Below are positions 1 through 55,122 of a DNA stretch of 64,000 nucleotides, piece by piece. Numbering within the stretch: position 1 is the stretch's first letter; each line of letters opens with the position of its first letter. The translations under genes and the position numbers were made by a program. The DNA is from Deltaproteobacteria bacterium. GTDB lineage: Bacteria > Desulfobacterota > BSN033 > UBA1163. The stretch spans positions 27,541 through 91,540 of the forward strand of contig VGRY01000006.1 of assembly GCA_016875195.1 (NCBI GenBank), given 5' to 3'. Below the pieces are notes generated by a model. The model saw only the letters and a program-made list of their open reading frames with translations, did no database searches and was not told the DNA's origin.

Positions 1-942
1 GTCTGACCGGTTCTTCTGAGCCCAGGAGATATAGACCGGCGCTTCATAACCCGGGACCAACCGCTTATAGGAGTTCACCCATTGATTGGTGACCAGAGTG
101 ATCTCCCGCGCATGCTTCATCAGGCCGGCAATATAATATTTACCTATCGCCGACAGATGGTACTCATCCTTAGGATCGAAAAAGGCATTCTTACTCCCTT
201 TGAAAAGGGACTGATGGGTATGCATCCCGCTTCCATTGATGCCAAAAACGGGTTTGGGCATGAAGCTGGCGTAAACATTATTTTTTAAAGCCACTTCCTT
301 GACTACCAGCCGGTAAATCATCGTGCTGTCAGCCATGGTCAAGGCATCCTTGTACTTGAGATCAATCTCATGCTGGCTGGGGGCTGCCTCATGATGGCAG
401 TATTCAACCTGCACTCCCATCTCTTCCAGGGTTGTCACAGCCTGTTTGCGGAGATCGCTTGCTACATCCATGGGTGTCAGGTCGAAATAGCCTCCTGAGT
501 CGAGAAGCTCCGGTTTGCCCGAAGAGTTTTTAAAAAAGAAGAACTCCAGCTCAGGGCCCACATTGAAGGTGTATCCCATCTTGTGAGCCCTCTCTAAATT
601 CTTTTTTAACACCCAGCGGGGATCACTCTGATAGGGCTTTCCATCCGGTTGGAGGATATCGCAGAACATGACTGCCACGACATGGTCGTTCGCCTTCCAG
701 GGGAAAATTCTGAAGGTGGATGGATCCGGTTTTGCCACCATGTCGCTTTCGTCAATCCTTGCGAAACCGGCCACAGAGGAGCCGTCAAACCCCATCCCGT
801 CTTCAAGAGCTGCCTCCAGCTCACGGATGGTGATGGCAAAGCTTTTCAAAAAACCGAGGATATCGGAGAACCAGAGCCTAACAAACCTGACTTTTTTCTC
901 CTTAGCAATCCGTAAAACGTCTTTTTTACCCAGTTTAGCCAT
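1..942 (-). CDS. glnA: Glutamine synthetase type I, paralog 1 (first 314 codons; C-terminus lies beyond the window start)
   Basis: Own translation of the minus strand from ATG 942-940: MAKLGKKDVLRIAKEKKVRFVRLWFSDILGF..GMGFDGSSVAGF..GPELEFFFF..HHEAAPSQHEIDLKY..NGSGMHTHQSLF..SYKRLVPGYEAP. The frame is open to position 1, so it is absent from the ORF track. It is colinear with the complete GlnA at 53800-55122. Confidence 0.92.
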   Translation of the reverse strand, partial: MAKLGKKDVLRIAKEKKVRFVRLWFSDILGFLKSFAITIRELEAALEDGMGFDGSSVAGFARIDESDMVAKPDPSTFRIFPWKANDHVVAVMFCDILQPDGKPYQSDPRWVLKKNLERAHKMGYTFNVGPELEFFFFKNSSGKPELLDSGGYFDLTPMDVASDLRKQAVTTLEEMGVQVEYCHHEAAPSQHEIDLKYKDALTMADSTMIYRLVVKEVALKNNVYASFMPKPVFGINGSGMHTHQSLFKGSKNAFFDPKDEYHLSAIGKYYIAGLMKHAREITLVTNQWVNSYKRLVPGYEAPVYISWAQKNRSD

Positions 943-1027: not shown

Positions 1028-1056
1028 TTGACAACGCTTCACCTTTTTTGTAAATT
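1028..1056 (+). promoter_or_regulatory. sigma70-type promoter TTGACA-N17-TAAATT for the GAF-ANTAR gene
   Basis: TTGACA at 1028-1033, 17-nt spacer, TAAATT at 1051-1056, about 30 nt upstream of the 1088 start. The same TTGAC(A/T)-N17-TAnAnn architecture recurs at 11993, 14033, 27909, 49894 and 63799. Confidence 0.45.
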
Positions 1057-1087: not shown

Positions 1088-1792
1088 TTGCTCTACAAAA
1101 AGACTTCCTACAAACAGCAGATCAAAGCTCTGACCGAAATCAGTAAAGCCATCTCATCGGATAGGTACTTAGACGATATTTTAAAACTGATCGTAACAGT
1201 CACGGCCAATGTGATGGACTCAAAGATATGTTCTCTCTGGCTTCTCGATGAGGAAGAGAAGGCTCTCAAAATCCGTGCCACACAGACCATGAGCGAGGAA
1301 TATCTTAAGGAAAGGAGCCTGAAATTAGGCGAGGGTGTGGTGGGTTATGTGGCCCAGACCAAAAAACCCCTGGCCATTCTCGATGTCTTGAAGGAGCCAC
1401 GGTATAAGGAAAAAGAGCTGGCCCAGAAGGAGAGCCTGGTATCCATGATCAGCGTTCCGCTGGCCGTAAAAGATAAAGTGATCGGAGTGATCAACTGTTA
1501 TACTTCTTACTCCCATCAATTTACCGAGGCTGAGAAGGAGATGCTCACCGCTGTTGCCAGTCAGGCTGCCATCTGTATTGAGAGCGCAGAGCTGATGGTA
1601 AAAACCAAGGTCATCCAGGAAGAACTGGAGATCCGAAAACTGGTGGAGAGAGCCAAGGGGATTTTAATGAAACGGCATGGGCTGAACGAAGAAGAAGCGT
1701 TCAAACGAATCCGGAAAGCCAGCATGGACAGCCGGAAGACCATGCGCGACATTGCCGAAGCAATCCTCCTCACCGATAAAATGGGAGGATAG
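1088..1792 (+). CDS. One-component GAF-ANTAR RNA-binding antitermination regulator
   Basis: N-terminal GAF domain (residues ~14-170). C-terminal ANTAR signature EELEIRKLVERAKGILMKRHGLNEEEAFKRIRKASMDSRKTMRDIAEAIL. No receiver domain. Confidence 0.88.
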   Translation: MLYKKTSYKQQIKALTEISKAISSDRYLDDILKLIVTVTANVMDSKICSLWLLDEEEKALKIRATQTMSEEYLKERSLKLGEGVVGYVAQTKKPLAILDVLKEPRYKEKELAQKESLVSMISVPLAVKDKVIGVINCYTSYSHQFTEAEKEMLTAVASQAAICIESAELMVKTKVIQEELEIRKLVERAKGILMKRHGLNEEEAFKRIRKASMDSRKTMRDIAEAILLTDKMGG

Positions 1793-2043: not shown

Positions 2044-3789
2044 TCAAACCTTACCCATGGCTGTTTCGATCTTTGGTTTTAAGGAGTTAAAATCCACCTT
2101 CTGCTCTTCACAGGCTTTCCGTATCGTGATCGCCCTTCCAAGAGTCTTTCGAAGAAGTGGATTGGTAATCTTCTCAAACCCCGCCTCTTTCAAAACCGGA
2201 ATCACCCCGGGAAACTGCTCGGTCAGGGCATAAACGGTTTCGTTTCCGGTAAAGACCTCGATGGGCTTTTCTTCATAAGCCTCTTCCTTTGTCATCGTCA
2301 CCCATATATTGACTCCAAAGAGGATCAGGGCGAGGACCTCTAAAAAACCGGTGAATCCTACAATATGATGGATGGTCGGATTTTTTGTGACCGAAAGGAT
2401 TTCAAATCCGATCCTGGCCCCATTGCCGATATTCAAAAGCCAGAAGGTCCAATGGGTCAGACGATTACTCCAGATTCGGTTCCCCGTAAAAACAGGAAGC
2501 ATCTTCATCGAATAGCCGATCATGAGCATGCTCACAAAACCAACCGTATAGCCATGATTCGCCGCCCCTCTTAACATGTGCTGGGTATAAGGATCTTTTG
2601 AAAAAAGTTGAAAGAGGGCAACCCCGAAAGAGATTGCCAGCCAGCCGTAACCCACACGGATGAAGCGCTCGTGGCTCCGATCCATCTGAACATCATCCAG
2701 GTCTCCCACCTTCTTTTCGAAAACCCTCAATGAACCGATGAAGAACCAGGTAAAATGGCTGATGATCAGAAGGGTCACAAAATAGATTCCTTGAATTCTG
2801 GTCAGCGCAGAGATGACGTATCCGATTAAGCCGATATTGTAGATGTAAAAGAATTTTCGGATTAACCCTTCTCGAACAGGGGGCGTATCCAGAAAAGAAG
2901 GTAGGGTCTTTGCAGAGATGCCAAAGATGAAATTAAAGGCAAACCCCATGAGAAAGAGATGCACCCAGGCGCTGAAGAGATAAGGAGGAACTGAACCTGC
3001 GATCAAAGGATTGTCTGATGGGAATTGACCCAGATAGAGCTGTAGATTGAGAATGGAGTAAACGATTCCACTGATCAGAAACCAAACAATTCCGACAAGA
3101 AGAAAATTATCCTGAATTCCTTTGGGTTCTCTGCTCTGTTTGAGGGTCTTCAGGCAAACAACCAGAAAGATGGCTGCGGCTCCTGTATCCAGACCCCCTG
3201 CAATCAATGGATAAAGAGGCGTATTCGATTCCTCAACATAATAGAAAAGGGCACGGATGATCAACCCGGCGAGCACCAGGTAATAACTGAGATTTGCCCA
3301 TTTTCTTCCAACCAGAGTCGTTCCTTTCAAACGAGGGAGGATGAAATAAAAGAACCCCATGATATAGAGGCCGACCCATCCTATCAATTGGCTTGAACCG
3401 TGCATCTGAATTGCCCTCTTTGATAGGACATCAAAAGAACCGCCCATTCCAGCTTCAAAGAGTTTGACCGCTCCGTAAAGGCACCCTGTCGTTACTGAGA
3501 CGATCAGCGCAGTTTTAACAAACTTCTGGTAGATCGTATCGCCGATCAAAGAAGGATCAATCTCAATGGCTTCTATCTTTCCCGGCTTTTCAGAGATGGC
3601 TGCTTCAAGTTCCTGGGCAAACTGCTCATATTCAACCCCGTGGGCCTTTGTAAAAAAGGCCATGGGTTCATGGGGTCCGCAGGATTTACCAACGATGAGC
3701 AGGTTATACTTCTGGAAAACCTTTGCCGTCTCCGGATATTGATCCAGAACCTCTTTCACCGTCATGTTTCGATCGATATGCTTTGCCAT
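2044..3789 (-). CDS. Polytopic membrane protein: DUF1858 - NnrS-like multi-TM core - DUF1858
   Basis: N-terminus MTVKEVLDQYPETAKVFQKYNL..CGPHEPM and C-terminus ETVYALTEQFPGVIPVLKEAGF..LGRAITIRKACEE look like DUF1858 (hybrid-cluster-protein-associated) domains. The middle ~400 aa is strongly hydrophobic with ~12 helices, resembling the NnrS family. Confidence 0.65.
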   Translation of the reverse strand: MAKHIDRNMTVKEVLDQYPETAKVFQKYNLLIVGKSCGPHEPMAFFTKAHGVEYEQFAQELEAAISEKPGKIEAIEIDPSLIGDTIYQKFVKTALIVSVTTGCLYGAVKLFEAGMGGSFDVLSKRAIQMHGSSQLIGWVGLYIMGFFYFILPRLKGTTLVGRKWANLSYYLVLAGLIIRALFYYVEESNTPLYPLIAGGLDTGAAAIFLVVCLKTLKQSREPKGIQDNFLLVGIVWFLISGIVYSILNLQLYLGQFPSDNPLIAGSVPPYLFSAWVHLFLMGFAFNFIFGISAKTLPSFLDTPPVREGLIRKFFYIYNIGLIGYVISALTRIQGIYFVTLLIISHFTWFFIGSLRVFEKKVGDLDDVQMDRSHERFIRVGYGWLAISFGVALFQLFSKDPYTQHMLRGAANHGYTVGFVSMLMIGYSMKMLPVFTGNRIWSNRLTHWTFWLLNIGNGARIGFEILSVTKNPTIHHIVGFTGFLEVLALILFGVNIWVTMTKEEAYEEKPIEVFTGNETVYALTEQFPGVIPVLKEAGFEKITNPLLRKTLGRAITIRKACEEQKVDFNSLKPKIETAMGKV

Positions 3790-3821
3790 CTAAACCACCT
3801 CTTTATTTTGTCTTTGATTTA

Positions 3822-3863
3822 ACTATAACGATTCATTAGATAAATTTCATTGACTTGTGTCAA
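3822..3863 (-). promoter_or_regulatory. CRP/FNR-type palindrome TTGAC-N4-GTCAA with TATAGT -10 at class-II spacing
   Basis: TTGACTTGTGTCAA at 3850-3863. On the minus strand TATAGT (3827-3822) starts 22 nt after the box, so the box centre is about -41.5. Lies upstream of the NnrS-like gene start at 3789. Confidence 0.4.
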
Positions 3864-3926
3864 AAAAACTCTTGCATTTAAATCTTTGGATAATTACCTT
3901 TTGATTAAAAAAACGGGGAGGTTCAA

Positions 3927-4376
3927 ATGATCAAAGATGATCGGAATTATCACCAGAGACTACAGGAATTCTGCGACTGTTATATGGAGACAGACCCCAA
4001 AAAGGAATTAGAGAAGGCGAGTAAAGGGGTCTCCGGGGATCCGGGCAGGGATATGGATGAATTAGCCCTTAAGTTTCTTGGACTTGGAATTTTTTATGGG
4101 GTCAGCGAGAAGGCAAAAAAGTTTACTCTCCAGCAATCAAAAGAGGGAAAGGTCATTTTTACGATAGAATCTCGTGGTCAATATCAGCTCTCCCCTCCTG
4201 GCATCCAGGTGGCAGACCGTATCATCTCCATTGCCCGGTCCATCACCCACATTGATGCGGACCGGGGGAGCGAACCTGTCTCTTTGGGTTTAAGGAACGA
4301 TCGAATAGAATTAACTTTCCAATTCGACCGTACTGAAAAAGGAGAAACGTTCTCGGTTCTGTTCCCGGAACTTTAG
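3927..4376 (+). CDS. Hypothetical protein (149 aa)
   Basis: ORF with SD-like ggggagg 8 nt upstream of the ATG. No family recognised. Confidence 0.5.
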   Translation: MIKDDRNYHQRLQEFCDCYMETDPKKELEKASKGVSGDPGRDMDELALKFLGLGIFYGVSEKAKKFTLQQSKEGKVIFTIESRGQYQLSPPGIQVADRIISIARSITHIDADRGSEPVSLGLRNDRIELTFQFDRTEKGETFSVLFPEL

Positions 4377-5044
4377 AGTGGATTGTGTTCACAGAAACAC
4401 CCAAACGTCCCAAACTCGCAACAATTGGGAATCTCATCCAATCTGACACATTTTCCGCAAAACTCCCCAGGGTCTTTAACTCCATGGCAGGGGACAACCA
4501 CTCCGGGGCAAACAAAATCGCACCCACGACAGAGGCGGCAGGTATCCGGCCTTACCTCAAAAGGCATACTCACCTTTCTGTCCATTCCCCTGCCCGCAAA
4601 TCCGAGTGCCCTTCCATCCATCTGCTCATAACACATCCGGATGCAGAGGCCGCAGAGTACGCACCGGTTGTCTTCCATAGGAAATCGGACTTTGAGAAGC
4701 CCCATACGAGCGGCTATATCCTGCGCAATCTTCACATTGGGGGCACTGGCGACCATCAGTTCTGCCAGCATCTTTCGTGCACGGATGATCCTTGGGCTCT
4801 TGGTTTGAATCACCAGGCCATCTCTCACCTCGTATGTGCAAGCCGTATCGACAAACGGTTTGCTGCCATTGTTGGCAATCTCTACCACACAGATCCGACA
4901 TCCTCCATAAGGGGTGAGGTGCTCCATGAAACACATCGTTGGGATATGGATCCCAAATTCGCGTCCGGCCTGAAGGACGGTACTCCCCTTCTCTACCTCT
5001 AACAATCTCCCATCGATGGTGATATGAACGGTCTCTCTTTTCAT
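4373..5044 (-). CDS. Fe-S subunit: NuoG/HndD N-terminal-like 2Fe-2S plus 4Fe-4S clusters, no catalytic domain
   Basis: ITIDGRLLEVEKGSTVLQAGREFGIHIPTMCF..GGCRICVVEI matches the 2Fe-2S fer2_4 type. This is followed by Cys-rich CVLCGLCIRMC and CRLCRGCDFVCP motifs. Confidence 0.8.
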   Translation of the reverse strand: MKRETVHITIDGRLLEVEKGSTVLQAGREFGIHIPTMCFMEHLTPYGGCRICVVEIANNGSKPFVDTACTYEVRDGLVIQTKSPRIIRARKMLAELMVASAPNVKIAQDIAARMGLLKVRFPMEDNRCVLCGLCIRMCYEQMDGRALGFAGRGMDRKVSMPFEVRPDTCRLCRGCDFVCPGVVVPCHGVKDPGEFCGKCVRLDEIPNCCEFGTFGCFCEHNPL

Positions 5045-5122
5045 TTTTCCTCTCCTTTACCGGATGAGTATCAAAAAGGTCATGCTGAATTTATTTCAGC
5101 ATCTCTGCCTAAAATAAGCAGA

Positions 5123-5250
5123 TTATAGTGGACGACTTTTAAAAGTAGTCATTGCGAGGAGCGAAGCGACGTGGCAATCCCATGAGATTGCTTCACTTCG
5201 TTCGCAATGACACATGATGGATGTCAATTTATTTAAGTCGTTCACTATAG
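5123..5250. repeat. Nested imperfect palindrome (element E2) inside the nuoF-like / Fe-S subunit intergenic gap
   Basis: Outer arms tatagtggacgac / gtcgttcactata match 12 of 13 positions. Inner arms are gtcattgcgaggagcgaagcgacgtggcaatc / gattgcttcacttcgttcgcaatgac. Confidence 0.7.
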
Positions 5251-5329
5251 TAATCCTATTTGAGAACTCCTGAGACCCTGAAACAAGTCAATGCGACTCG
5301 AAACTGAGTTCAGGGTGACATAACTGGAT

Positions 5330-7183
5330 TTATTGAATCATCACGGCCTCTGCTTTGCACACATCTTTACAGGAACCGCATTTTGAGCAGAGCTCTGTAA
5401 GGATATGGTGGACCTGCTTCTTCTTTCCTTCAATAGCCTGTGTTGGGCAGATCTTTGCACAGGCGCCACATCCTGTACATTCATCTGAGATGGAGTATTG
5501 GATAAGAGGTGTACATACGCCAGCGGGACATCTCTTCTTATGAATATGAGCCTCAAACTCAGATCTGAAATACCTCAAAGCTGAAAGAACCGGATTGGGA
5601 GCTGTCTTTCCCAGACCACAGAGCGACGTATCGCCAACTACTTCGGCCAAATCTTGAAGAAGCGCCAGGCTCTCTCCATCCCCTTTTCCTTCGGTGATGT
5701 CGTCAAGAATTCCCCCCATCCTTTTTAATCCTTCACGGCAGGGGAGACATTTCCCGCAGGATTCCTCCTGCAGGAAGTGAACAAAATATTTTGCTACATC
5801 GACCATGCAGGTCCCTTCATCCATCACGATCATTCCGCCAGAGCCCATCATAGAACCAGCCTCAGTGAGGCTGTCGAAATCGACCGGCAGGTGAAAGAGA
5901 GAGGCTGGAATGCAGCCACCGGATGGCCCCCCTGTTTGAACGGCTTTAATCTTTTTCCCGTTCTGTTGACCGCCTCCAATGTCGAAGATAATCTTTTTGA
6001 GGGTCATGCCCATGGGTACTTCCACCAAACCTGTATTCTTCACCTTCCCTACCAGGGAGAAGATCTTTGTCCCTTTGCTCTTCTCGGTGCCGATGGAGGA
6101 GAACCACTCGCTTCCCTTTTCGATGATCAAAGGAACATTGGCCCACGTCTCAACATTGTTGAGATTGGTAGGCTTCCCCCAGAGCCCCTGTTTCACCGTA
6201 TGAACCTGCTTGCTCCTGGGCTCTCCAACCCGACCCTCGATCGACGCAATCAATGCCGTTGACTCTCCACAGACAAAGGCTCCGCCTCCCTTGGAAATCT
6301 CCACATCGAAATCGAATCCCGAGTCCAGAATGTTTTTCCCGAGCAAACCAACCTTCCTCGCCTGTTGAACCGCAATCTCTGCATTCTTGTGCGCCAGGGG
6401 ATATTCATGCCTCACATAGATGTACCCCTGGCTGGCGCCGATCGCATAGGCTCCGATCAACATCCCTTCAAGGACGGAATGAGGATTGCCTTCCATCAGG
6501 GCTCTGTCCATAAAAGCTCCGGGGTCTCCCTCGTCGCAGTTGCAGATAACATATTTAGGTGTTCCGGGTGCTTTTTTACAGTCCTCCCATTTTTTCCCGG
6601 TCGGATAACCTGCTCCACCCCTTCCTCTTAAACCAGAGGTCTTGATCTCTTCGATAATCGCAGTGGGTTCCATTTTAAACAGTGCTTTGGCCAACGATTG
6701 ATAACCTCCAACCGATAGATAATCCTCAATATGGGTTGGATCAATCAGATCATTCCGGCTGAGGAGGACTCTCATCTGAGACCGATAAAAAGGAATTTCA
6801 TTGGCAGAAGTAAGTTTCTGTTTGGCGCCCGAATCTTCAAAGAGAAGACGCTCCACCTTTTTACCTTTCTGAATGGTTTTTGAAATGATCTCTGAAACAT
6901 CCTCGGGTTTCACTTTTTGATAGAAAATATCCTGCGGGAGAATGGTCACAAGAGGCCCCCTCTCACAAAAACCCGGGCATCCAGTAACCTTTAAGGCCAC
7001 CTTTTCCTTTAAATTTTTCGTTTTCGTTAATTCTTTCTGGAATGCCTCTTTGACTTGTTGGCAGTCATAGGCCTGACATCCGGTGCCACCGCAAACCGAT
7101 ACGATCATCTCATGGCGCTTCTCTTTTAAGAGGATATCCTCTCTCCACTTCTCCAGGTCCTTAAGTGATTTGACTTTTCTCAT
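5330..7183 (-). CDS. NuoF/HydB/HndC-like flavoprotein (NADH-binding, FMN, multiple Fe-S)
   Basis: N-terminal thioredoxin-like 2Fe-2S ([17 protein letters not shown]). [17 protein letters not shown] and [11 protein letters not shown] are NuoF FMN/NADH motifs. [12 protein letters not shown] is the NuoF 4Fe-4S motif. C-terminal 2x CxxCxxCxxxCP ferredoxin. Confidence 0.92.
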
Positions 7184-7725
7184 GACTTCACCCCGCTCGG
7201 TTTATTATTTATTTTCTCAATAATTTTTTTGGCTTTGATTGAAGTCATCTCCCCATAAAACTTCTGGTCCACCATCATGACCGGGCCAATGGCACATACC
7301 CCGAGGCAGTTCACCACATTCAGAGAAAACTGTTTATCTGGAGTGGTCTGCCCTGGTTCGATACGGAGGAGACTCTTAAGTTCCCTTAAAATCTTTGGGC
7401 CTCCCCGAACATGGCATGCCGTCCCAAGACAGAGGGTAATGGAATGCTTTCCTTGAGGAACAAGGGTGAAGGACTTGTAGAAAGTCGCAACGCCATAGAC
7501 CTCATTGATGTCCATCCGGAGTCTTGACGCAACCACCTTAAGCGCCTCGATCGGGAGATATTTATACCGGTCCTGAACATCATGAAGGATGCTGATGAGG
7601 GCTGTCCTCTTTTCCTGATGCCTGTCTACGATTAAATCCACTGTTTTTAGGTCCATTTCACCTCCAAAATTATGTTTAGTTAACTTTTGTAAGATAAATA
7701 CATTTTCACTTAAATTATTTTGCAA
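7180..7725 (-). CDS. NuoE/HndA-like thioredoxin-fold 2Fe-2S subunit
   Basis: [60 protein letters not shown]. Overlaps the nuoF-like start by 4 nt. Confidence 0.9.
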
Positions 7726-7754
7726 AAAAATTTCATTTTAAGTTTTACTTAAAT

Positions 7755-9062
7755 TCACCATCCTGCCCTGGGAGGGCTCAATACCCATAGGACAATAGCA
7801 TCTCCTTTCCCAGTATTGACCCATCTTATAGGGATTGATGAGCCTATATAAAGGCTATCTCCCTGTCTTAATATCTGTTTTTCATCCTGGAATTCTACCT
7901 CCAGATATCCTTCGATGACGTATATAAATTCATCGCCTTTATGTTTATAAAAATGCCCTTTGATCACTGCTCCCTCTTTAATGGTTAGTAGATAGGGCTC
8001 CATTCTTCGGTTGATCGCATCCGAAACCAATAGCTGAAGTTTGATATCTACACCCTTCAGTCCGGGGAGTTGAATATCCTGCCTTTCTCCGGATTTGATC
8101 ACCATTTTTTGTTGAGGACCGCTTTCACCCTCCACCAGAAAGTAGATGGGTTGGGTATTCAATTTCTCGCTCAATTTGAGAAGGGAATCGAGCGAGGGGC
8201 TGATCAGGTTCTTTTCTAACTGCGAGATAAAACTCGGGGTCAGGCCCACCTGCTCGGCCAGTTCCTTCTGGGTCATCCCTATCTTCTTCCTTAATGTTCT
8301 AACCTTGTCACCCAGGTTGCTGGGCGCTCGCCCCCCTATGGAAGGGAAGATGATATCCTCATCCCATACTTCATAATGTTTCGGAAGAAAGGCGCTCCTT
8401 GAAAACCGACCCTCAATCTTAATCGCCTTCAAAAAGAGGTCTCCATCCTGTTTTTCGAGCCCAATGGCCACCTGAGTGATATGTCTCAGATTGGCTTTAA
8501 AGGCCGGAGAATGAGCTTCTTTCTCCAACACCCAGTAAGCCACGGTTTGAAGGTCATAAAGCCGGGGGCAGGAGTAGGTGAAAAATTTGTAGGTCACATT
8601 CTCATCGCCCCAGATGTCCTGCATTCCAGTGAGACTGTCGAAGATATAACGAACGCCCGCTCCCTTCTCGATTTCTACTCGATCCATGGCAACGCGAAAT
8701 TGCGAAAGATCCTTCGGGTTTTCAACTTTAATAACATTGCCCTTAAACCCTTCCCGTTCTTTCTCATAGAATTGGACAAACAGGGGGTCACTGTTCCCCT
8801 TTCCAGAGGTGAAGCAGTCTAAGATGGTTAAATATTCTAAATGGGGAAGATGGGATAAGCGTTTAGTCAGGGTGGAGGGAGAGGCATTGAAACTGACGTA
8901 AACCAGATTGTAACCGCTCTTTAAATTGTGCTCGATAAACCGTTGGAGGAAGGTTTCGATATAACTCCCTGCCTCCACTTCCCAGAGCACATTATCCCCG
9001 GCCTTGAGGAAACCAAGGATATGATCAACATAATTAATTCCAGTCGAAATTTTTAAGCTCAT
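7755..9062 (-). CDS. Transcription regulator: KaiC/RecA-like pseudo-ATPase domain + XRE HTH + cupin
   Basis: N-terminal domain with GDNVLWEVE in place of a Walker A. HTH MTQKELAEQVGLTPSFISQLEKN. C-terminal cupin (GDEFIYVIEGYLEV). The ORF track starts at TTG 9137, but that TTG is the TTGACA of a TTGACA-N15-TATAAT motif. ATG 9062 (MSLKISTGINYVDHILG) aligns with the paralogous N-terminus of 9316-11964. Confidence 0.7.
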   Translation of the reverse strand: MSLKISTGINYVDHILGFLKAGDNVLWEVEAGSYIETFLQRFIEHNLKSGYNLVYVSFNASPSTLTKRLSHLPHLEYLTILDCFTSGKGNSDPLFVQFYEKEREGFKGNVIKVENPKDLSQFRVAMDRVEIEKGAGVRYIFDSLTGMQDIWGDENVTYKFFTYSCPRLYDLQTVAYWVLEKEAHSPAFKANLRHITQVAIGLEKQDGDLFLKAIKIEGRFSRSAFLPKHYEVWDEDIIFPSIGGRAPSNLGDKVRTLRKKIGMTQKELAEQVGLTPSFISQLEKNLISPSLDSLLKLSEKLNTQPIYFLVEGESGPQQKMVIKSGERQDIQLPGLKGVDIKLQLLVSDAINRRMEPYLLTIKEGAVIKGHFYKHKGDEFIYVIEGYLEVEFQDEKQILRQGDSLYIGSSIPIRWVNTGKGDAIVLWVLSPPRAGW

Positions 9063-9315
9063 TTTTAATATACACTGAAATTTATAGTCAAATAATTCAT
9101 TTAGAATGTTATTATACTCTTTAAACTCAAATGTCAACTAATTTTTAATAATTTATAAAATTCCATGTTTTCTCCCATCCCCAAAGTTCTTTAAGGGGTC
9201 ACTTTCCGTTGCTATCCAATTGTATTTTTGTTAATATTTTTTAAAACTTCCAAATCATTAATAACGAAGTCTAATTCACCATTTAACGATTTTCTTTTGG
9301 AAAGAAGGAATGTGA

Positions 9316-11964
9316 ATGAATAAAGGAACCGGGGGTTTAACCATTCCAAGCGGAATTGAAGCCTTAGACGATGTGTTACAGGGGCTTCGGCTTGGCGATA
9401 ACGTGGTCTGGCAAGTAGAGCGGTTGGAGGATTATAAATACTTTGCTGAACCGTTCACTCAATCTGCCATTGCTTCGCATCGAAAAATCGTCTATCTGCG
9501 ATTTGCCTCCCATCCTCCTATCCTGACGCCCCGTCCTGGACTCGAGATGATCGAGTTGAACCCCACTTTAGGGTTTGATCATTTTACTCGGGAGACACAT
9601 CATCTTATTGAAGCCTATGGTCATGGGGTGATGTACGTTTTTGACAATCTATCTGCCCTGGTTGTAGAGTGGGCTACGGATGAACTTCTTGCCAATTTTT
9701 TTCAAATTACCTGCCCTTTTCTAGCGGAATTAAATACGATCGCCTACTTTGCTTTGACTCGCGGGCAGCACGCACATTACGCCGTAGCCCGAATCCGGGA
9801 TACAACCCAGATCTTGGTCGATGTCTATCCATCACAGGGGCAAATACATATTCACCCCATCAAGGTATGGGACCGTTACTCACCCCAGATGTTTCTTCCC
9901 CATCTTGTCACTGGAAACCGATGGGCTCCCCTCTCTCACAGTCACGAGGCTGCCAAAGTGCTTTCCTCCGCCCACCCCATCTCTTTGCTCGATACGACAC
10001 GGACCATCGCTCCCTGGGAAAGCGTTTACCAAAAACTCTTACACTATTGCAGCACGCCAGCCGGCTTTAACGATACAGACCCGGAACAAAGGGCTTTAAA
10101 GTTAGAATTAAGCCGGATGCTCATCGGTCATCATCCCGTCTTTAGTCAACTGGCAGACCAGTATTTTACTCTTGAAGATCTGTTTGAAATTCGTAACCGT
10201 TTGATCGGGGCTGGACGCATTGGCGGTAAAGCCGCCGGCATGTTACTGGCACGACGCATCCTGCTGTCTTCCAAAGAGCGAGAGGGCAATATTTTTTCAG
10301 ATCGGCTCGATGACCACGATTCCTTCTTTATCGGTTCGGATGTTTTTTTCACCTTTCTGGTAAACAACGATTTGTTCCGCCTTCGTCTGCATCTCACCTG
10401 TAATTCCGAAACCTCCCAGGAAGAATTTCAAGAAATTGAGAACCGCTTTTTAGATGGCCATTTCTCAGAAACGATTCAAGAACAATTTCGAGCCATGCTC
10501 GACTATTATGGCGAAGCCCCGATCATCGTCCGATCGAGCAGCCTGCTGGAGGATAGTTTCGGAAATGCATTTGCCGGCAAATACTCAAGTATTTTCTGCC
10601 CAAACCAGGGTCCCCCTGAAGCCCGCCTCGCTGAATTCATGAAGGCGGTCAAGTTAGTTTATGCCAGCGCCCTCAACCCCGATGCCCTCTGTTATAGAAG
10701 CAAGCGGGGCCTGGGGGAGTATGACGAGCAGATGGCCATTCTGGTCCAGCGCGTCTCTGGCATGCCATATCACCACTATTTTTTCCCCACTCTGGCCGGT
10801 GTTGGTTTATCGCAAAATCTCTATGCCTGGAACGACCGCATTGATCCCCGGCAGGGAATCATTCGATTGGTCTTTGGGTTGGGGACACGCGCCGTGGACC
10901 GGGTTGATTCGGATTACCCTCGAATGATCGCCATCAGTCATCCCAATCTACGTCCGGATGTAGGATCGAAGGTTTCCAAATATTCCCAACACCATATGGA
11001 CCTGATCGACCTAAAAAACAACCGGTTCACGACTTGTTTGTTGACCGATGTCCTATCCGATGGTGACTATCCCAACCTTCATCTGCTTCTCTCGACCATG
11101 CAGGACCATTATCCCTATGATCCCATCTCAAAAAAAATCTCGGGCAGTAAGGACCAATGGGTGCTCACCTTTAACAACTTGATCCGTCAGACCGACCTGG
11201 TGCCACTCCTCAGAAAGATATTGGTCAAATTGGAGGAAGCCTATGGTCAACCGGTGGACATTGAGTTTACTGCCACTGTCAACTCCGCAAGCCAAACCCG
11301 CATCAATCTGGTTCAGTGCCGTCCACTCTATTTCCCCGGTTCACCGGAGGAAGTATCCCTACCGACCTCCCTTGATCGTCAGCGGGTGTTATTTCGCGCC
11401 CACCGAATGATCTGTGGCGGTCTGGTGGACCAAATTCGTTACATTCTCTACATCGATCCGAAGCGCTATACCCACCTGAATTTCGAGGCAAAAAAATCTT
11501 TGGGCCGACTGGTGGGACAGATCAATCGCCATCCATTGATGCATTCTAATAAGATGATCATGATGGGACCAGGACGCTGGGGAACAAGCAATATTGCCCT
11601 GGGAGTCAACGTGAGTTATGCCGACATCGGTAATGCATCCGTATTAGTGGAAGTAGCCTTGGAGGAGGAAGGCCATGTGCCTGAAGTCTCTTATGGCACC
11701 CATTTTTTTCATGACCTGATCGAGGCCCGGATCATTTATCTGCCGGTCTATCCTGCGGATCCGGCAGCAGAGCTCCATAAAAAATTCTTTGAAACCTCGC
11801 CGAATATCCTCCTGGAGTGGTTGCCCGAAGCCAGGGAATATGAATCGATCCTGCGTTTGATCGATGTTCCCAGGGTGACAGAAGGGGCATTCGCTCACGT
11901 AGTGGCCGATCCCCAACGCCAGCAGGCGGTTTGTTTCCTGGATAAACCCTTTCCCCTCATCTGA
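9316..11964 (+). CDS. KaiC-like pseudo-ATPase domain fused to PEP/pyruvate-binding (PPDK_N, ATP-grasp) domain protein
   Basis: N-terminus SGIEALDDVLQGLRLGDNVVWQVE, with no P-loop. Central LIGAGRIGGKAAGMLLARRIL..IVRSSSLLEDSFGNAFAGKY is typical of pyruvate phosphate dikinase N-terminal domains. Confidence 0.8.
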   Translation: MNKGTGGLTIPSGIEALDDVLQGLRLGDNVVWQVERLEDYKYFAEPFTQSAIASHRKIVYLRFASHPPILTPRPGLEMIELNPTLGFDHFTRETHHLIEAYGHGVMYVFDNLSALVVEWATDELLANFFQITCPFLAELNTIAYFALTRGQHAHYAVARIRDTTQILVDVYPSQGQIHIHPIKVWDRYSPQMFLPHLVTGNRWAPLSHSHEAAKVLSSAHPISLLDTTRTIAPWESVYQKLLHYCSTPAGFNDTDPEQRALKLELSRMLIGHHPVFSQLADQYFTLEDLFEIRNRLIGAGRIGGKAAGMLLARRILLSSKEREGNIFSDRLDDHDSFFIGSDVFFTFLVNNDLFRLRLHLTCNSETSQEEFQEIENRFLDGHFSETIQEQFRAMLDYYGEAPIIVRSSSLLEDSFGNAFAGKYSSIFCPNQGPPEARLAEFMKAVKLVYASALNPDALCYRSKRGLGEYDEQMAILVQRVSGMPYHHYFFPTLAGVGLSQNLYAWNDRIDPRQGIIRLVFGLGTRAVDRVDSDYPRMIAISHPNLRPDVGSKVSKYSQHHMDLIDLKNNRFTTCLLTDVLSDGDYPNLHLLLSTMQDHYPYDPISKKISGSKDQWVLTFNNLIRQTDLVPLLRKILVKLEEAYGQPVDIEFTATVNSASQTRINLVQCRPLYFPGSPEEVSLPTSLDRQRVLFRAHRMICGGLVDQIRYILYIDPKRYTHLNFEAKKSLGRLVGQINRHPLMHSNKMIMMGPGRWGTSNIALGVNVSYADIGNASVLVEVALEEEGHVPEVSYGTHFFHDLIEARIIYLPVYPADPAAELHKKFFETSPNILLEWLPEAREYESILRLIDVPRVTEGAFAHVVADPQRQQAVCFLDKPFPLI

Positions 11965-12021: not shown

Positions 12022-12030
12022 GGAATTAAT

Positions 12031-12085
12031 CAATACAGTGGTGTATTGAGGACAAAGGGGTCGAAGAAATTCGGCCCCTTTTTTT
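12031..12085 (+). promoter_or_regulatory. ANTAR-type dual-hairpin antiterminator / intrinsic terminator module, copy 1
   Basis: P1 CAATAC-AGTGGT-GTATTG at 12031-12048. P2 GAC-AAAGGG-GTC at 12051-12062. Terminator GGGGTCGAA-gaaa-TTCGGCCCC at 12057-12078 plus T7. The terminator 5' arm overlaps the 3' half of P2. Confidence 0.75.
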
Positions 12086-12138
12086 ATACAAAGGGGTATC
12101 CGCGACAGGGGCGTCCAAGGAATGGGCTCCCTTTTTTT
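12086..12138 (+). promoter_or_regulatory. ANTAR-type antiterminator/terminator module, copy 2
   Basis: P1 ATAC-AAAGGG-GTAT at 12086-12099. P2 GAC-AGGGGC-GTC at 12104-12115. Terminator stem 12109-12131 (8 bp with one C/T mismatch) plus T7 at 12132-12138. Confidence 0.65.
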
Positions 12139-12144
12139 ATTTGA

Positions 12145-12194
12145 TACAATGGAGTACGAAAGACAAAGGTGTCAAAGCAAGTTGGTTCTTTTTT
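12145..12194 (+). promoter_or_regulatory. Degenerate third copy of the module
   Basis: P1 TAC-AATGGA-GTA at 12145-12156. P2 GAC-AAAGGT-GTC at 12162-12173. T-run at 12189-12194, but I could not draw a convincing terminator stem. Confidence 0.4.
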
Positions 12195-12224
12195 ATCCAT
12201 TTACTGAAAAGGAGGAACTATAAA

Positions 12225-13877
12225 ATGAGCTTTGCCAAACCGAATAGAAGTCCAGCGACCTTTACCAAAAATCGAGTCGAGCCAGCCCCGCAATCGGGAA
12301 TCTGCGTGACCTGTCTGGATGGCTGCCCGGGTCCCTGTGAAGTGGGTCGGTCTGCCTTGAGGGGAAGAGAGGTTCTGTACCCTCAGCCCTATTCCAAGAT
12401 AACGGCCGGGTCTGAAAAGGATTACCCGGTTGACTTGTCCCATTTTAATATCCAGGGAACCTGTGTGGGAGCGATTGGGGTGAACGCTGATTCAGATCAT
12501 GCGACCTTTCCTGCCGTCGATGTTTCAACACAGGTGGGAGCGAAGGAAAAGATCAAAATGAAAGTCCCCTACTTTACGGGTGCCCTGGGTTCAACCGACA
12601 TTGCCCGGATCCACTGGGAATCAATGGCCATTGCAGCCGCTATTTCAGGGACACTGGTCGTGGTGGGAGAAAATGTCTGCGGAATGGATCCCAATTCTGA
12701 ACTTAAAAATGGCCGTGTGGTCCATTCTCCAGAGTTGGAGCGGCGCGTCAACATATTCCAACAGTGGTATGATGGATATGGTGGAATTGTTGTCCAGTAC
12801 AATGTAGAAGATGGTCGCCTCGGGGTTCCAGAATATGCTGTTGAAAAATTGGGCGTCCAGATCATCGAGCCAAAATGGGGACAGGGCGCCAAGGATATCG
12901 GCGGCGAGGTCAAACTGCCTTCTCTTGAAAGAGCGCAGCAATTGAAGAGCCGTGGCTATATCGTTTACCCTGACCCTGAAGATCAAGTCATCCAGGAAGC
13001 TTTTAAACAAGGAGATTTTAAAGAATTTGAAAGACACTCAAGATTGGGAATGGTGGATGAAGAAGGCTTTCACAAAGAAGTCGCTCGCCTGAGAAAAATG
13101 GGAGCAAAGTATGTAACCTTGAAGACCGGAGCCTATCGGCCGGCTGATCTGGCACGGGCCGTTAAATACTCTTCCGATGCCCAAATCGACCTTCTCACAG
13201 TCGATGGCGCGGGTGGAGGAACTGGAATGAGTCCCTGGCGGATGATGAACGAGTGGGGAATCCCGACCGTTTACCTCGAAGGCCTTCTTTACCAATACCT
13301 GAAACGATTAGACCAGAGGGGTGCATTCATTCCTGACTGCGCTATGGCAGGAGGACTTGCCCTTGAAGACCATATCTTCAAATCGATCGCCTTGGGCGCA
13401 CCTTATATCAAAGCCATCTGCCTGGGTCGGGCTTCGATGACAGCCGCTATGGTGGGCAATACCATCGGTGAGATGGTTAAAAAGGGAAAGGTCCCCGCTG
13501 ACATTGCCAAATACGGCGCTGATGTCGAACATGTCTTTATCCTGGCTGCTAAGCTGAAGGATAGATTCGGAAAAGATTTTGAACGCATTCCCACGGGAAC
13601 GATCGGAATGCTCACCTATTTTGACCGGTTGAATGCAGGACTTCAACAATTTATGGCTGGAGCTAGAAAATTTGCTCTAAATTATATTTCCAGAAGTGAC
13701 CTCTGCAGTTTAACCCGGGAAGCAGCCTACGTCTCTGGGATTCCTTATGTGATGGATTCGGATAAAGAGGAAGTTGACAATATTTTACGAAAAGGAGACC
13801 ATGTGGAGAAAACCTCCTCGAAAATTCTAAACCTGAACCTCGAGGCCCTCATCAAATCAAAAGCCGTCATGGGTTAA
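12225..13877 (+). CDS. Glutamate synthase-related FMN-binding (GltS central domain family) protein with N-terminal Cys motif
   Basis: Strong SD aaaggagga 9 nt before ATG 12225. CVTCLDGCPGPCEV motif. VPYFTGALGS, QGAKDIGGEVKLP and LLTVDGAGGGTGMSP match GltB FMN-domain motifs. The 12141 TTG start in the ORF track lies inside the leader modules. Confidence 0.85.
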   Translation: MSFAKPNRSPATFTKNRVEPAPQSGICVTCLDGCPGPCEVGRSALRGREVLYPQPYSKITAGSEKDYPVDLSHFNIQGTCVGAIGVNADSDHATFPAVDVSTQVGAKEKIKMKVPYFTGALGSTDIARIHWESMAIAAAISGTLVVVGENVCGMDPNSELKNGRVVHSPELERRVNIFQQWYDGYGGIVVQYNVEDGRLGVPEYAVEKLGVQIIEPKWGQGAKDIGGEVKLPSLERAQQLKSRGYIVYPDPEDQVIQEAFKQGDFKEFERHSRLGMVDEEGFHKEVARLRKMGAKYVTLKTGAYRPADLARAVKYSSDAQIDLLTVDGAGGGTGMSPWRMMNEWGIPTVYLEGLLYQYLKRLDQRGAFIPDCAMAGGLALEDHIFKSIALGAPYIKAICLGRASMTAAMVGNTIGEMVKKGKVPADIAKYGADVEHVFILAAKLKDRFGKDFERIPTGTIGMLTYFDRLNAGLQQFMAGARKFALNYISRSDLCSLTREAAYVSGIPYVMDSDKEEVDNILRKGDHVEKTSSKILNLNLEALIKSKAVMG

Positions 13878-14061: not shown

Positions 14062-14068
14062 AACATCA

Positions 14069-14120
14069 CAATACAAAGAGGTATTGGAGATCGGGCATCA
14101 AGTTTTTGATGCTTTTTTTT
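14069..14120 (+). promoter_or_regulatory. ANTAR-type antiterminator/terminator module (gdh leader, copy 1)
   Basis: P1 CAATAC-AAAGAG-GTATTG at 14069-14086. P2 GAT-CGGGC-ATC at 14089-14099 has a 5-nt loop. Terminator GCATCAA-gttt-TTGATGC at 14095-14112 plus T8. Confidence 0.7.
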
Positions 14121-14122
14121 AA

Positions 14123-14178
14123 ACGATAAAGCGTCGTATGAATGACAAAGGCGTCAGAGTGAATGGACGCCTTTTTTT
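14123..14178 (+). promoter_or_regulatory. ANTAR-type antiterminator/terminator module (gdh leader, copy 2)
   Basis: P1 ACGA-taaagcg-TCGT at 14123-14137. P2 GAC-AAAGGC-GTC at 14144-14155. Terminator GGCGTC..GGACGCC at 14150-14171 plus T7. Confidence 0.7.
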
Positions 14179-43533: not shown

Positions 43534-43880
43534 GTTTCACCTCGCCATAGAAGGATTAAGAAACTCAAAGCACCCATGAAAGGTGCGTTAAGAATTAATA
43601 TGATTCTTAGTTTTTGACCATGTAGCCCCCCTAATTTAAAAATGGTCCCTCACAAAAAATACTTCCTTTCTATCATGAAAGCATATCCATGTGAGATTTT
43701 CTTTGACTTAAGTCAAAAAAAAACCGCAGGCTCGTCTGTTTGATTTTCAACAGACTGCCTAAACTTCAACAAAGAATTCCTTAAGACATGATTGCAACGT
43801 AACAACATTCCAGGATCTCTTTTCCGGTAACTATCCAATATTTTTTGTTAAATCAGCTTTTACCCTTTCCCATCAAGGTC

Positions 43881-43896: not shown

Positions 43897-43907
43897 CTCT
43901 ATACTGC

Positions 43908-49922: not shown

Positions 49923-49929
49923 TATTAAA

Positions 49930-49983
49930 AATACGAAGCTGTATTGGGGACGAGGGCGTCAAGGTTTATTGACGCCTTTTTTT
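49930..49983 (+). promoter_or_regulatory. ANTAR-type antiterminator/terminator module (kinase operon leader)
   Basis: P1 AATAC-GAAGCT-GTATT at 49930-49945. P2 GAC-GAGGGC-GTC at 49949-49960. Terminator GGCGTCAA-ggttta-TTGACGCC at 49955-49976 plus T7. Confidence 0.75.
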
Positions 49984-50201
49984 ATCCGCCTACGCAGAAG
50001 ACCACCCCGCTCAGCGGGATGGATGAATGCGCATAATTGCCAAAGTAAGTTATGGGTTTATAAATTACTGCTTCGGCGGATTTCGCTGAAGGCGGATAAC
50101 CCTCCGAAGCCTTGGCGTAGGAGGGTATCTTTATGGAGATACTACGAGCTTTGCCCGTGGGGCTCCATCGGTAGCCACTGGCCCAGCGGGTCAACAGTAG
50201 A

Positions 50202-53589: not shown

Positions 53590-53605
53590 TGGCATATTAT
53601 TTGCT
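53590..53605 (+). promoter_or_regulatory. sigma54 promoter TGGCAT-N5-TTGCT upstream of glnA
   Basis: tggcatattatttgct with canonical spacing. The predicted TSS at ~53616 is 4 nt before P1. Confidence 0.75.
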
Positions 53606-53619
53606 ATTAATATTTCGTT

Positions 53620-53684
53620 AATACGATGGGGTATTAGAATGACAAGGGCGTCTTTCTTAAAACGGAGAGACGCCTTTTTATTTT
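53620..53684 (+). promoter_or_regulatory. ANTAR-type antiterminator/terminator module (glnA leader)
   Basis: P1 AATAC-GATGGG-GTATT at 53620-53635. P2 GAC-AAGGGC-GTC at 53641-53652. Terminator GGCGTCTTTC-ttaaaacg-GAGAGACGCC at 53647-53674 plus TTTTTATTTT. Confidence 0.75.
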
Positions 53685-53799: not shown

Positions 53800-55122
53800 A
53801 TGGACAAAGCAACTGTATTGAAGATGGCGAAGGAGAATGATGTCAAATTTATCCGACTCTGGTTTACGGACATTCTGGGATTTCTGAAGGGGTTTTCGAT
53901 CACCATCCATGAACTCGAAGGGGCCCTTGAGGAAGGCATGGGGTTTGATGGTTCCTCGATCCAGGGATATGCTCGAATCGACGAAAGCGATATGATCGCT
54001 AAGCCTGACCCAAAGACCTTCCAGATCATCCCGTGGCGACCCAAAGAGAATGCAGTAGCCCGGATGTTTGCCGATGTCTATGAACCTGATGGAACCCCCT
54101 ACAAAGGCGACCCCAGATTCGTCTTAAAAAAGACTCTTAAGAAGGCGCATGACCTTGGATATACCTTATATGTCGGGCCTGAACTGGAATATTTCTACTT
54201 TAAAAGCAGTGATGGGGCGCCACAGATTCTTGATAAAGGAGGATATTTTGACCTCACCCCTCTGGATGTGGCAACCGAACTCCGGCGTGAAACCATTCTC
54301 ACACTTGAAGCCATGGGTATCAGGGTGGAATACAGCCATCACGAGGTAGCCCCGAGCCAGCATGAGATCGATCTCCGTTATGCCGAGGCTCTGAGCATGG
54401 CAGACAATGCCATGACCTATCGCCTCGTGGTGAAGGAGGTTGCATTGAGACACGGTGTCTACGCCACATTCATGCCCAAACCCATTTTTAAACAGAACGG
54501 AAGCGGGATGCACACCCATCAGTCCCTTTTCAAGGGTGACACGAATGTCTTCTTCGATCCGAAGGATGAATTCCATCTTTCAAAGATTGCCAAGTCTTAT
54601 ATGGCCGGAATTTTAAAACATTCAAAGGAAATCACCTCCATCACCTCCCAGTGGATCAACTCTTACAAAAGACTTGTCCCAGGATACGAAGCGCCGGTCT
54701 ATATCGCCTGGGCCCGGAGAAACCGTTCGGCACTGGTCCGGGTTCCCATGTATAAACCTGGAAAAGAGAAAGCCACACGGATGGAACTCCGCTCCCCCGA
54801 TCCGGCATGCAATCCCTATCTGGCCTTTGCTGTCATGTTGGCTGCAGGCCTGAAGGGAATCGAGAAGGGTTATGAACTTCCGTCTCCTGTTGAGGAGGAC
54901 ATTTTTGAGATGTCTGAAGAGGCACGGAAAAGACACGGAATCGAATCGCTTCCGGGAAGTCTATATGAAGCCATCCAGCTCACCGAACAGAGTGAACTGG
55001 TAAGAGAAACCCTTGGAGACCACATCTTCCATAAATTCATTGAAAACAAGAAGATCGAATGGGATCAGTACCGGACCCACATCTCCCAGTTCGAATTGGA
55101 GAAGTATCTGCCTATTCTTTAA
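53800..55122 (+). CDS. glnA: Glutamine synthetase type I, paralog 2 (complete, 440 aa)
   Basis: GMGFDGSSIQGY, GPELEYFYF, HHEVAPSQHEIDLRY, NGSGMHTHQSLF, RVPMYKPGKEKATRMELRSPD. SD aaggagga upstream. Confidence 0.95.
   Translation: MDKATVLKMAKENDVKFIRLWFTDILGFLKGFSITIHELEGALEEGMGFDGSSIQGYARIDESDMIAKPDPKTFQIIPWRPKENAVARMFADVYEPDGTPYKGDPRFVLKKTLKKAHDLGYTLYVGPELEYFYFKSSDGAPQILDKGGYFDLTPLDVATELRRETILTLEAMGIRVEYSHHEVAPSQHEIDLRYAEALSMADNAMTYRLVVKEVALRHGVYATFMPKPIFKQNGSGMHTHQSLFKGDTNVFFDPKDEFHLSKIAKSYMAGILKHSKEITSITSQWINSYKRLVPGYEAPVYIAWARRNRSALVRVPMYKPGKEKATRMELRSPDPACNPYLAFAVMLAAGLKGIEKGYELPSPVEEDIFEMSEEARKRHGIESLPGSLYEAIQLTEQSELVRETLGDHIFHKFIENKKIEWDQYRTHISQFELEKYLPIL

Follow-up and report, generated by a model that had tools for sequence, protein, structure and literature searches.

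ANTAR regulators of nitrogen genes

Control of nitrogen genes by ANTAR-domain proteins is established for GnfR, NasR, AmiR and NasT, and tandem ANTAR sites in front of glutamine synthetase (GS) and glutamate synthase (GOGAT) genes were widely predicted in 2012 (PMC3369931). Here we describe a GAF-ANTAR protein and seven ANTAR-type RNA modules encoded in a stretch of 64,000 nucleotides (64 kb, hereafter the window) of contig VGRY01000006.1 from a Deltaproteobacteria bacterium. The window was rich in nitrogen-assimilation genes, and the protein probably acts as an antiterminator in the leaders of several of them. Characterized ANTAR regulators in the literature searched displayed receiver, pseudo-receiver, NIT or LOV/PAS sensors, and no characterized GAF-ANTAR member was found in that literature. 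No GAF-ANTAR protein had been characterized at the time of Ramesh 2012 (PMC3369931), and later papers name only NasR and PAL as characterized one-component ANTAR proteins (PMC7496416, PMC12591593).

In Geobacter sulfurreducens, the ANTAR protein of the GnfK/GnfR system relieves terminators in nitrogen-gene leaders beside an NtrC-type sigma54 system (PMC2995071), an organization that is predicted from sequence for the window as well. The conserved GnfR site CAGGCAANGGCGCC contains a GGC-AANGGC-GCC hairpin, which resembles the second hairpin (P2) GAC-AAAGGC-GTC of the window (PMC2995071). Unlike the window protein, which harbors a GAF domain and no receiver, GnfR belongs to the phosphorylated response regulators and works with a partner kinase, and it serves nif genes whereas the window targets are ammonium-assimilation genes. 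In Geobacter, the sigma54 system GnfL/GnfM switches on gnfK/gnfR (PMC2995071); this order looks reversed in the window, since a module precedes the kinase/NtrC operon there.

NasR of Klebsiella oxytoca shares with the window a sensor fused to ANTAR via a helical linker, a two-hairpin hexaloop RNA overlapping a terminator and a nitrogen-related regulon (PMC7496416, PMC12591593), but its sensor is a NIT domain binding nitrate/nitrite and it controls one operon, whereas the window system has a GAF sensor and tandem modules and extends to at least four transcription units. EutV/EutW of Enterococcus faecalis resemble the window system in ANTAR fold, RNA-contact residues, A1/G4 hexaloops, short linker and location of P2 inside the terminator (PMC3369931, PMC8934654); unlike the window protein, EutV is activated by receiver phosphorylation and controls ethanolamine utilization. 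Firmicute ANTAR genes have been linked to glnA and to predicted nitrogen regulons (Amet_3385, Daud_2028, and Desulfotomaculum acetoxidans with 13 sites; Table S2 of PMC3369931). As in the window, the ANTAR gene of these systems lies beside glnA, and multiple, often tandem RNA sites precede GS, GOGAT, amt and P-II genes (PMC3369931), but the Firmicute regulators are annotated as response regulators, unlike the GAF-ANTAR family.

The best sequence and structure matches of the sensor were the GAF domains of EI-Ntr (PtsP) and NifA, both involved in nitrogen signaling, although the outputs of these proteins differ from that of the window protein (phosphoenolpyruvate-phosphotransferase and sigma54 ATPase, respectively) and GAF identity is only ~25-30%. 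Actinobacterial GAF-ANTAR proteins have the same two-domain architecture, listed as common (10.1101/660928), but are uncharacterized, and in mycobacteria ANTAR RNAs affect translation and serve lipid and redox genes instead of working through terminators in front of nitrogen genes (10.1101/660928).

A one-component GAF-ANTAR protein encoded beside glnA

The regulator gene and a first glnA paralog were divergently oriented, as the preliminary description had it, and were separated by a spacer of 145 nucleotides (nt):

1088..1792, + strand: GAF-ANTAR gene, 234 amino acids (aa), TTG start 6 nt past AAAGGAG
1..942, - strand: glnA paralog 1 (glnA1), cut by the window start, gene start at 942; Pfam Gln-synt_N and Gln-synt_C; divergent from the regulator
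1028..1056, + strand: sigma70-like promoter TTGACA-17-TAAATT before the GAF-ANTAR gene (consensus scan, 10/12 matches)

According to Pfam, the protein encompassed a GAF domain (residues 28-165, E-value 1e-21) and an ANTAR domain (PF03861, residues 177-227, E-value 1e-22, 80 bits against a cut-off of 27.3, profile positions 4-54 of 54). Sensor and ANTAR were thus carried by a single 234-aa protein, as in one-component ANTAR regulators. No Pfam match to Response_reg was obtained in the protein, which leaves it outside the receiver-ANTAR class, and no NIT or LOV/PAS sensor was found in it, the sensor region matching GAF models alone. No kinase gene adjoined the regulator, whose neighbors were glnA and an NnrS-like gene. 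An ANTAR hidden Markov model built from the window protein together with Rv1626, EutV, NasR and AmiR, and run on the six frames, retrieved a single ANTAR domain within the window (nt 1613-1774). The earlier statements that a GAF domain replaces the phospho-receiver and that this is the only ANTAR gene of the window were therefore borne out, although the latter tells nothing about the remainder of the genome.

Matches of the ANTAR region in the Protein Data Bank (PDB) were Rv1626, EutV, NasR and AmiR, and RNA-contact residues were judged by alignment to EutV, the RNA complex of which has been solved (PMC8934654). EutV K143, Y164, R168, M172, N173 and R175 aligned to K184, F205, R209, M213, D214 and R216 of the window protein. 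Among the contact positions, K184, R209, M213 (the 'hydrophobic plug') and R216 were identical to EutV, while R188, F205 and D214 were conservative substitutions (F205 and D214 as in Rv1626, D214 also as in NasR). The position of EutV R177 was occupied by T218, likewise in Rv1626. The RNA-contact positions were invariant across 32 close homologs.

An AlphaFold monomer model (mean predicted local distance difference test, pLDDT, of 83) displayed a GAF fold and an unbroken helix (residues 147-197) joining the last GAF helix to the first ANTAR helix, the arrangement that would be expected of a signaling helix or coiled coil. A fold search with this model returned no full-length GAF-ANTAR structure among the PDB matches. 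More than 6900 homologs were obtained at E-values <=1e-10, the named ones being called only 'GAF and ANTAR domain-containing protein' or similar, and an exact look-up of the window protein yielded only two contigs of ~0.9 kb without gene context. The representative-protein search was set aside as a source of relatives, being dominated by giant multi-GAF proteins with summed scores; the few useful relatives that it gave were NadE-like-GAF-ANTAR fusions and GAF-GAF-ANTAR proteins. Three relatives of ~470 aa (P0212, P0228 and P0262) displayed an extra N-terminal ~240 aa resembling NAD synthetase (NadE), and their GAF-ANTAR part was 56-59% identical to the window protein.

Seven RNA modules in the leaders of nitrogen genes

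The modules shared a consensus made of a first hairpin (P1) (C)AATAC-RNNGNN-GTATT(G), a linker of 2-5 nt, P2 GAC-RNNGGN-GTC, and then a G+C-rich stem and a T-run, the 5' arm of the G+C-rich stem starting within the P2 loop. Covariance model (CM) hits are given in brackets:

12029..12088 (CM 12029-12064), + strand: module A; P1 TCAATAC-AGTGGT-GTATTGA; P2 GAC-AAAGGG-GTC at 12051-12062; terminator 12054-12081, T-run
12082..12140 (CM 12082-12117), + strand: module B; P1 ATAC-AAAGGG-GTAT; P2 GAC-AGGGGC-GTC at 12104-12115; terminator ~12108-12131, T-run
12140..12195 (CM 12140-12175), + strand: module C; P1 TAC-AATGGA-GTA; P2 GAC-AAAGGT-GTC at 12162-12173; weak terminator, T-run
14067..14122 (CM 14067-14101), + strand: module D; P1 CAATAC-AAAGAG-GTATTG; P2 GAT-CGGGC-ATC with a 5-nt loop; terminator 14093-14114, T-run
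14122..14178 (CM 14122-14157), + strand: module E; degenerate P1; P2 GAC-AAAGGC-GTC at 14144-14155; terminator GGCGTC...GACGCC at 14150-14171, T-run
49927..49986 (CM 49927-49962), + strand: module F; P1 AATAC-GAAGCT-GTATT; P2 GAC-GAGGGC-GTC at 49949-49960; terminator 49952-49979, T-run
53617..53682 (CM 53617-53654), + strand: module G; P1 AATAC-GATGGG-GTATT; P2 GAC-AAGGGC-GTC at 53641-53652; terminator 53644-53677, T-run

A glutamate synthase-like (GltS-like) gene was preceded by three modules, gdh by two, and the GAF-kinase/NtrC operon and a second glnA paralog by one each:

12226..13877, + strand: GltS-like gene, glutamate synthase FMN domain only (Pfam Glu_synthase), first gene past modules A-C
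14213-15460, + strand: gdh (Pfam), downstream of modules D and E
15618-17354, + strand: glutamine-dependent NAD synthetase gene (Pfam), downstream of gdh
50202-51929, + strand: GAF-GAF histidine kinase gene (Pfam)
51936-53414, + strand: gene of an NtrC-type sigma54 activator (Pfam), partner of the kinase
53590..53605, + strand: sigma54-type promoter TGGCAT-N5-TTGCT (consensus only), immediately upstream of module G and glnA2
53800..55122, + strand: glnA paralog 2 (glnA2; Pfam), downstream of module G

The GltS-like gene starts at ATG 12226 with the ribosome-binding site AAGGAGG, the listed TTG 12141 overlapping module C. The gdh and NAD synthetase genes are presumably co-transcribed.

A covariance model trained on six module copies and run on the window with filters off recovered these six at 39-44 bits, and a seventh, untrained copy (14122-14157) was found at an E-value of 0.004, the next window hit having an E-value of 0.87. 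The count of exactly seven modules and their placement, as given in the preliminary description, are therefore correct. The P1 pattern ATACNNNGNNGTAT occurred 5 times for 0.09 expected and the P2 pattern 6 times for 1.5 expected, all on the + strand and all in leaders. Every hexaloop had G at position 4, with A or G at position 1, and both hairpins followed the dual-hexaloop rule (Ramesh 2012) in modules A, B, C, F and G, the exceptions being P2 of D and P1 of E.

The terminator 5' arm began inside the P2 loop in modules A, B, D, E, F and G. In modules A, D and F, the minimum-free-energy fold contained P1 and the terminator but lacked P2; modules E and G formed the terminator without P1, and module C did not form the terminator expected for it. 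Terminators were called by a consensus scan in 5 of the 7 modules (A, B, D, F and G). These folds and terminator calls indicate that termination is the default state. With its ANTAR domain and dual-hexaloop RNAs, the locus is an uncharacterized variant of a known mechanism, outside the response-regulator ANTAR class because of the missing receiver.

The covariance model found no module in the regulator's own leader (943-1087), which agrees with the earlier observation, and none belonging to glnA1 or to the following genes of the window:

43845-48879: GATase, amt, glnK and glnD, with the P-II gene glnK at 46029-46367 and glnD at 46357-48879
43881-43896: near-consensus sigma54 promoter TGGCAC-N5-TTGCT, read from the sequence, before GATase-amt-glnK-glnD
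55430-63025: giant GltS fusion gene (2531 aa), directly after glnA2

The giant GltS gene may be read through from glnA2. No Rfam match was obtained at the gathering threshold over the whole window, and the permissive mode returned just chance-level, terminator-like matches on the GltS-like leader; no curated Rfam family covers the module RNAs.

Linkage of the regulator and the RNA in other genomes

The gene and the RNA motif co-occurred in other genomes under several phylum labels, whichever of the two was used as the query. Searching metagenomes for the motif by itself (ATAC-N3-G-N2-GTAT-N1-8-GAC-N3-GGCGTC) yielded 80 loci totaling 471 kb. All 19 ANTAR open reading frames (ORFs) near the motif were full-length matches to the GAF-ANTAR family, 17 of them at 73-89% identity to the window protein and 2 at 45-47%. 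ANTAR proteins of other kinds accounted for 0/19, the lack of a receiver being deduced from the full-length matches, with no receiver-domain model run. The first gene past the motif was glnA (17), gdh (12) or a GltS-like gene (9), the others being scattered small or doubtful ORFs. This motif-to-protein link, which samples just motif-proximal DNA, is the strongest argument against another ANTAR regulator.

A GAF-ANTAR relative was present in at least 541 species genomes when each species was represented by a single genome. We kept the best 80 loci, at 61-94% identity and all from metagenome-assembled genomes, with 10-kb flanks; their labels covered five phyla (Thermodesulfobacteriota/Syntrophaceae, Anaerolineales, Omnitrophota, Planctomycetia and Nitrospirota). 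The gene directly adjoining the regulator was glnA in 27 of 56 informative loci. Neighbor genes were mostly nitrogen genes, with GltS-like, gdh, GAF-kinase/NtrC, NAD synthetase and amt-P-II genes downstream. The GltS-like ortholog was the commonest gene after the regulator; in loci such as L007 and L016 the module-bearing GltS-like gene directly followed it, unlike in the window, where a ~10-kb block (2044-11964) parts them.

The window-derived covariance model detected modules <=400 nt past the stop codon in 14 close relatives, but was rejected as a cross-phylum finder for being too specific to the window stem sequences, and was replaced by a structure-only pattern scan with shuffled controls and by direct reading of intergenic DNA. 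The structure-only scan displayed 8 more loci from other phyla (158 hits vs ~38 in shuffles); a stricter version gave 46 hits vs ~8 in shuffles and missed some true sites (L035, L036 and L042). Reading of intergenic DNA contributed 8 further module loci. Altogether, ~30 of the 73 informative loci (those with >=300 nt downstream) had a module <=500 nt past the stop codon, for ~0.6 expected, including loci of Anaerolineales, Omnitrophota and Planctomycetia. The loci without an adjacent module may be explained in part by detection failures and in part by targets elsewhere in the genome.

P2 stems varied between groups yet still paired (GAC/GTC, GGC/GCC, AGC/GCT and AAC/GTT), with the G at loop position 4 and the closing C-G pair retained. 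Over 27 modules, 90.7% of the cells were paired and 7/8 pairs changed on both sides, the free observations in this set being limited to the type of pair and to the two outer pairs of P1. The covariation score was reached by 0/500 shuffles, and no slid register came close.

Several loci departed from the general arrangement. In L062, L069 and L072, glnA lay ~150-230 nt after the regulator stop codon with a sigma54-type promoter TGGCAT-N5-TTGCT and no module, so that the glnA linkage persists even without antitermination of glnA. In L030 and L033, a short ORF with receiver-like motifs (PDLIILD...) stood between the GAF-ANTAR gene and glnA, and may encode a partner protein in that subgroup. In the Planctomycetia locus L056, a module (2254-2303) preceded the GAF-ANTAR gene, pointing to autoregulation at that locus. 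The P1 stem was longer in a subgroup of modules (L037, L041 and L082), in which a C-T mismatch was conserved at the second pair (CC-loop-GT) and the linker was extended to ~9-15 nt.

A sensor domain shared with the kinase

The best NCBIfam matches of the sensor GAF were PtsP (EI-Ntr, E-value 1e-21) and NifA (E-value 7e-17), both scoring far under the full-length cut-offs since the GAF region alone aligns, and its best PDB sequence matches were PtsP GAFs (3trc and 3ci6). The fold search returned generic GAFs with very different ligands, including cAMP- and cGMP-binding GAFs and the GAF of an HD-GYP protein. The GAF domain of NifA binds 2-oxoglutarate. That of EI-Ntr binds glutamine (PMC4848567). 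Likeness to these two GAFs is consistent with glutamine, 2-oxoglutarate or P-II as the candidate ligand of the window GAF.

Residues 2-170 of the regulator were 65% identical (111/171) and 85% similar to the first GAF domain of the kinase (BLASTP, E-value 1e-76). Best-hit identity between regulator GAF and kinase GAF was 55-71% in nine closer loci (62-71% when the alignment was confined to the GAF), and just 26-28% in three more distant ones. The GAF of another sigma54 activator of the window (40086-42266), considered as a further sharer of the sensor, was unrelated. With a near-copy of the regulator GAF on the kinase of the NtrC-type system, the antitermination and sigma54 arms would both respond to the same signal, and the resemblance suggests one signal read by two output devices, the antiterminator and the kinase.

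Proposed mechanism

From the observed domains, RNA anatomy, linkage and contact residues, we infer RNA binding, a ligand and a direction of response. The whole explanation, in which the GAF-ANTAR protein is a one-component antiterminator of the seven leaders with its GAF domain set by nitrogen status, is given a probability of about 0.72. Regulation of the seven modules by this protein, as the preliminary description proposed, is well supported by the two-way conserved linkage, the conserved EutV contact residues and the resemblance of the modules to ANTAR targets.

Modeled on EutV and NasR (PMC3369931, PMC8934654, PMC7496416), the mechanism would run as follows. A regulated leader would fold by default into the P1 hairpin and the intrinsic terminator, and transcription would stop before the gene. 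The active protein, probably a dimer, would engage the nascent RNA first at the P1 hexaloop and next at the P2 hexaloop. The P2 3' half (loop positions 4-6 and the GTC arm) doubles as the terminator 5' arm, so that holding P2 would block termination. Polymerase would then read into the GltS-like gene, gdh (probably with the NAD synthetase gene), the GAF-kinase/NtrC operon and glnA2, and two or three serial modules should sharpen the response. The GAF domain would set activity by nitrogen status, the likeliest signal being glutamine and/or 2-oxoglutarate bound directly, with P-II as the alternative. By analogy with EI-Ntr, we guess that the protein is active at nitrogen scarcity (low glutamine or high 2-oxoglutarate). 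The kinase/NtrC operon would itself be gated by module F, and glnA2, with a sigma54 promoter plus a module, would be under a two-key gate.

The regulator has a sigma70-like, module-free promoter and the kinase/NtrC operon lies behind module F, so the antiterminator appears upstream of the sigma54 arm. This speaks for the earlier designation as 'master regulator'; the term is nevertheless too strong, as glnA1, amt-glnK-glnD and the giant GltS gene all lack a module of their own.

Several points weigh against the proposed mechanism. The nitrogen genes without their own module imply that control is shared with sigma54/NtrC. More than half of the related loci had no module next to the gene, and the rule used to select hairpins required three paired positions, so that the inner pairs of each stem were paired by construction. 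Fold comparison does not discriminate among candidate ligands. The same switch on gdh and glnA2 would be unusual if the two are oppositely regulated, as in Geobacter. Finally, 64 kb of the genome are visible, and a receiver-ANTAR regulator could be encoded elsewhere.

If the mechanism holds, a family whose architecture is listed among the common ones (PMC7496416, PMC12591593) would receive its first assignable role. Since its RNA target can be identified, its regulon is defined (GS, GltS-like, glutamate dehydrogenase and NtrBC-like) and a candidate ligand class is at hand, a first functional study of the family is straightforward, and the system would help explain the control of ammonium assimilation in many uncultured anaerobes. 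The same sensor domain, apparently wired to RNA-level and sigma54-level outputs, would be a clean natural case of modular signal distribution, and the two or three serial modules would lend themselves to work on how attenuators in series shape a response. A broader conjecture, which we hold only tentatively and think doubtful, is that a single, highly conserved GAF is the primary intracellular nitrogen sensor in Syntrophales-like Thermodesulfobacteriota and, in varied form, in Anaerolineales, Omnitrophota and Planctomycetia: fused to ANTAR it would gate elongation of GS, GltS and glutamate dehydrogenase genes, fused to a kinase it would drive the NtrC-type sigma54 activator, and the RNA-binding form would stand on top, one of its switches preceding the kinase/NtrC operon. 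It would amount to one-component, RNA-level master control of ammonium assimilation, replacing the NtrB/P-II sensing of proteobacteria.

Alternative explanations

The output could be the same with the GAF domain serving as a docking surface for P-II (GlnB/GlnK), the state of which depends on GlnD; such a role has been proposed for the GAF of some NifA proteins. The window contains the genes of both P-II and GlnD, the GAF domain of NifA is a target of P-II in Azospirillum and Rhodospirillum, and the very high GAF conservation across phylum labels (61-94% identity) would fit a protein-protein interface. However, the closest characterized GAFs, those of EI-Ntr, bind glutamine directly (PMC4848567), and the related loci displayed no conserved P-II/regulator neighborhood beyond general nitrogen clustering, which makes docking rather unlikely.

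The modules could also be real ANTAR targets served by another ANTAR protein encoded outside the window, for instance a receiver-ANTAR protein like GnfR/NitR, the GAF-ANTAR protein being redundant or having other targets. Characterized and predicted nitrogen ANTAR systems do use receiver-ANTAR proteins (PMC2995071; Table S2 of PMC3369931), genomes often hold several ANTAR genes (10.1101/660928), and the visible portion of this genome leaves room for one. An outside regulator nevertheless seems improbable, since each ANTAR ORF near the motif in the 80 metagenome loci belonged to the GAF-ANTAR family and a module directly followed the GAF-ANTAR gene in ~30/73 loci under several phylum labels.

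A GAF sensing a non-nitrogen signal (cAMP, cGMP, c-di-GMP or redox), with the link to nitrogen made by the target genes alone, has a similarly low probability. The cyclic-nucleotide and HD-GYP GAFs among the structural neighbors would fit such a signal, and NasT is reported to bind c-di-GMP (PMC10783516), but the best sequence matches were EI-Ntr and NifA GAFs, the same GAF was found on the kinase partnering the NtrC-type activator beside glnA2, and the regulator neighbors were mostly nitrogen-assimilation genes.

Protein-free leaders, either riboswitch-like or simple constitutive attenuators, would agree with the absence of an Rfam family and with the imperfect modules C and E, but are scarcely credible given the dual hexaloops, G at position 4 and P2/terminator overlap of ANTAR targets, modules too small for a ligand pocket, and the tight co-occurrence with the ANTAR gene.

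Other features of the window

The listed start of the GATase ORF (43845) is upstream of the sigma54 promoter at 43881-43896, and its true start therefore lies further downstream. The giant 2531-aa ORF joined FAD_binding_4, 4Fe-4S clusters, a glutamate synthase FMN domain, a glutamine amidotransferase and GXGXG, an unusually large fusion of GltS type. Past the regulator, a minus-strand block (2044-9137) encoded an NnrS/COX1-like membrane protein with DUF1858, a 2Fe-2S protein, NuoF-like and NuoE-like proteins and an HTH-cupin regulator. Long imperfect inverted repeats with CGAA/TTCG-type words were found in three intergenic regions, namely past the regulator gene (1866-1995), between module G and glnA2 (53709-53779) and between glnA2 and the giant GltS gene (55219-55341), with arms of 23-53 nt that were 71-88% complementary.

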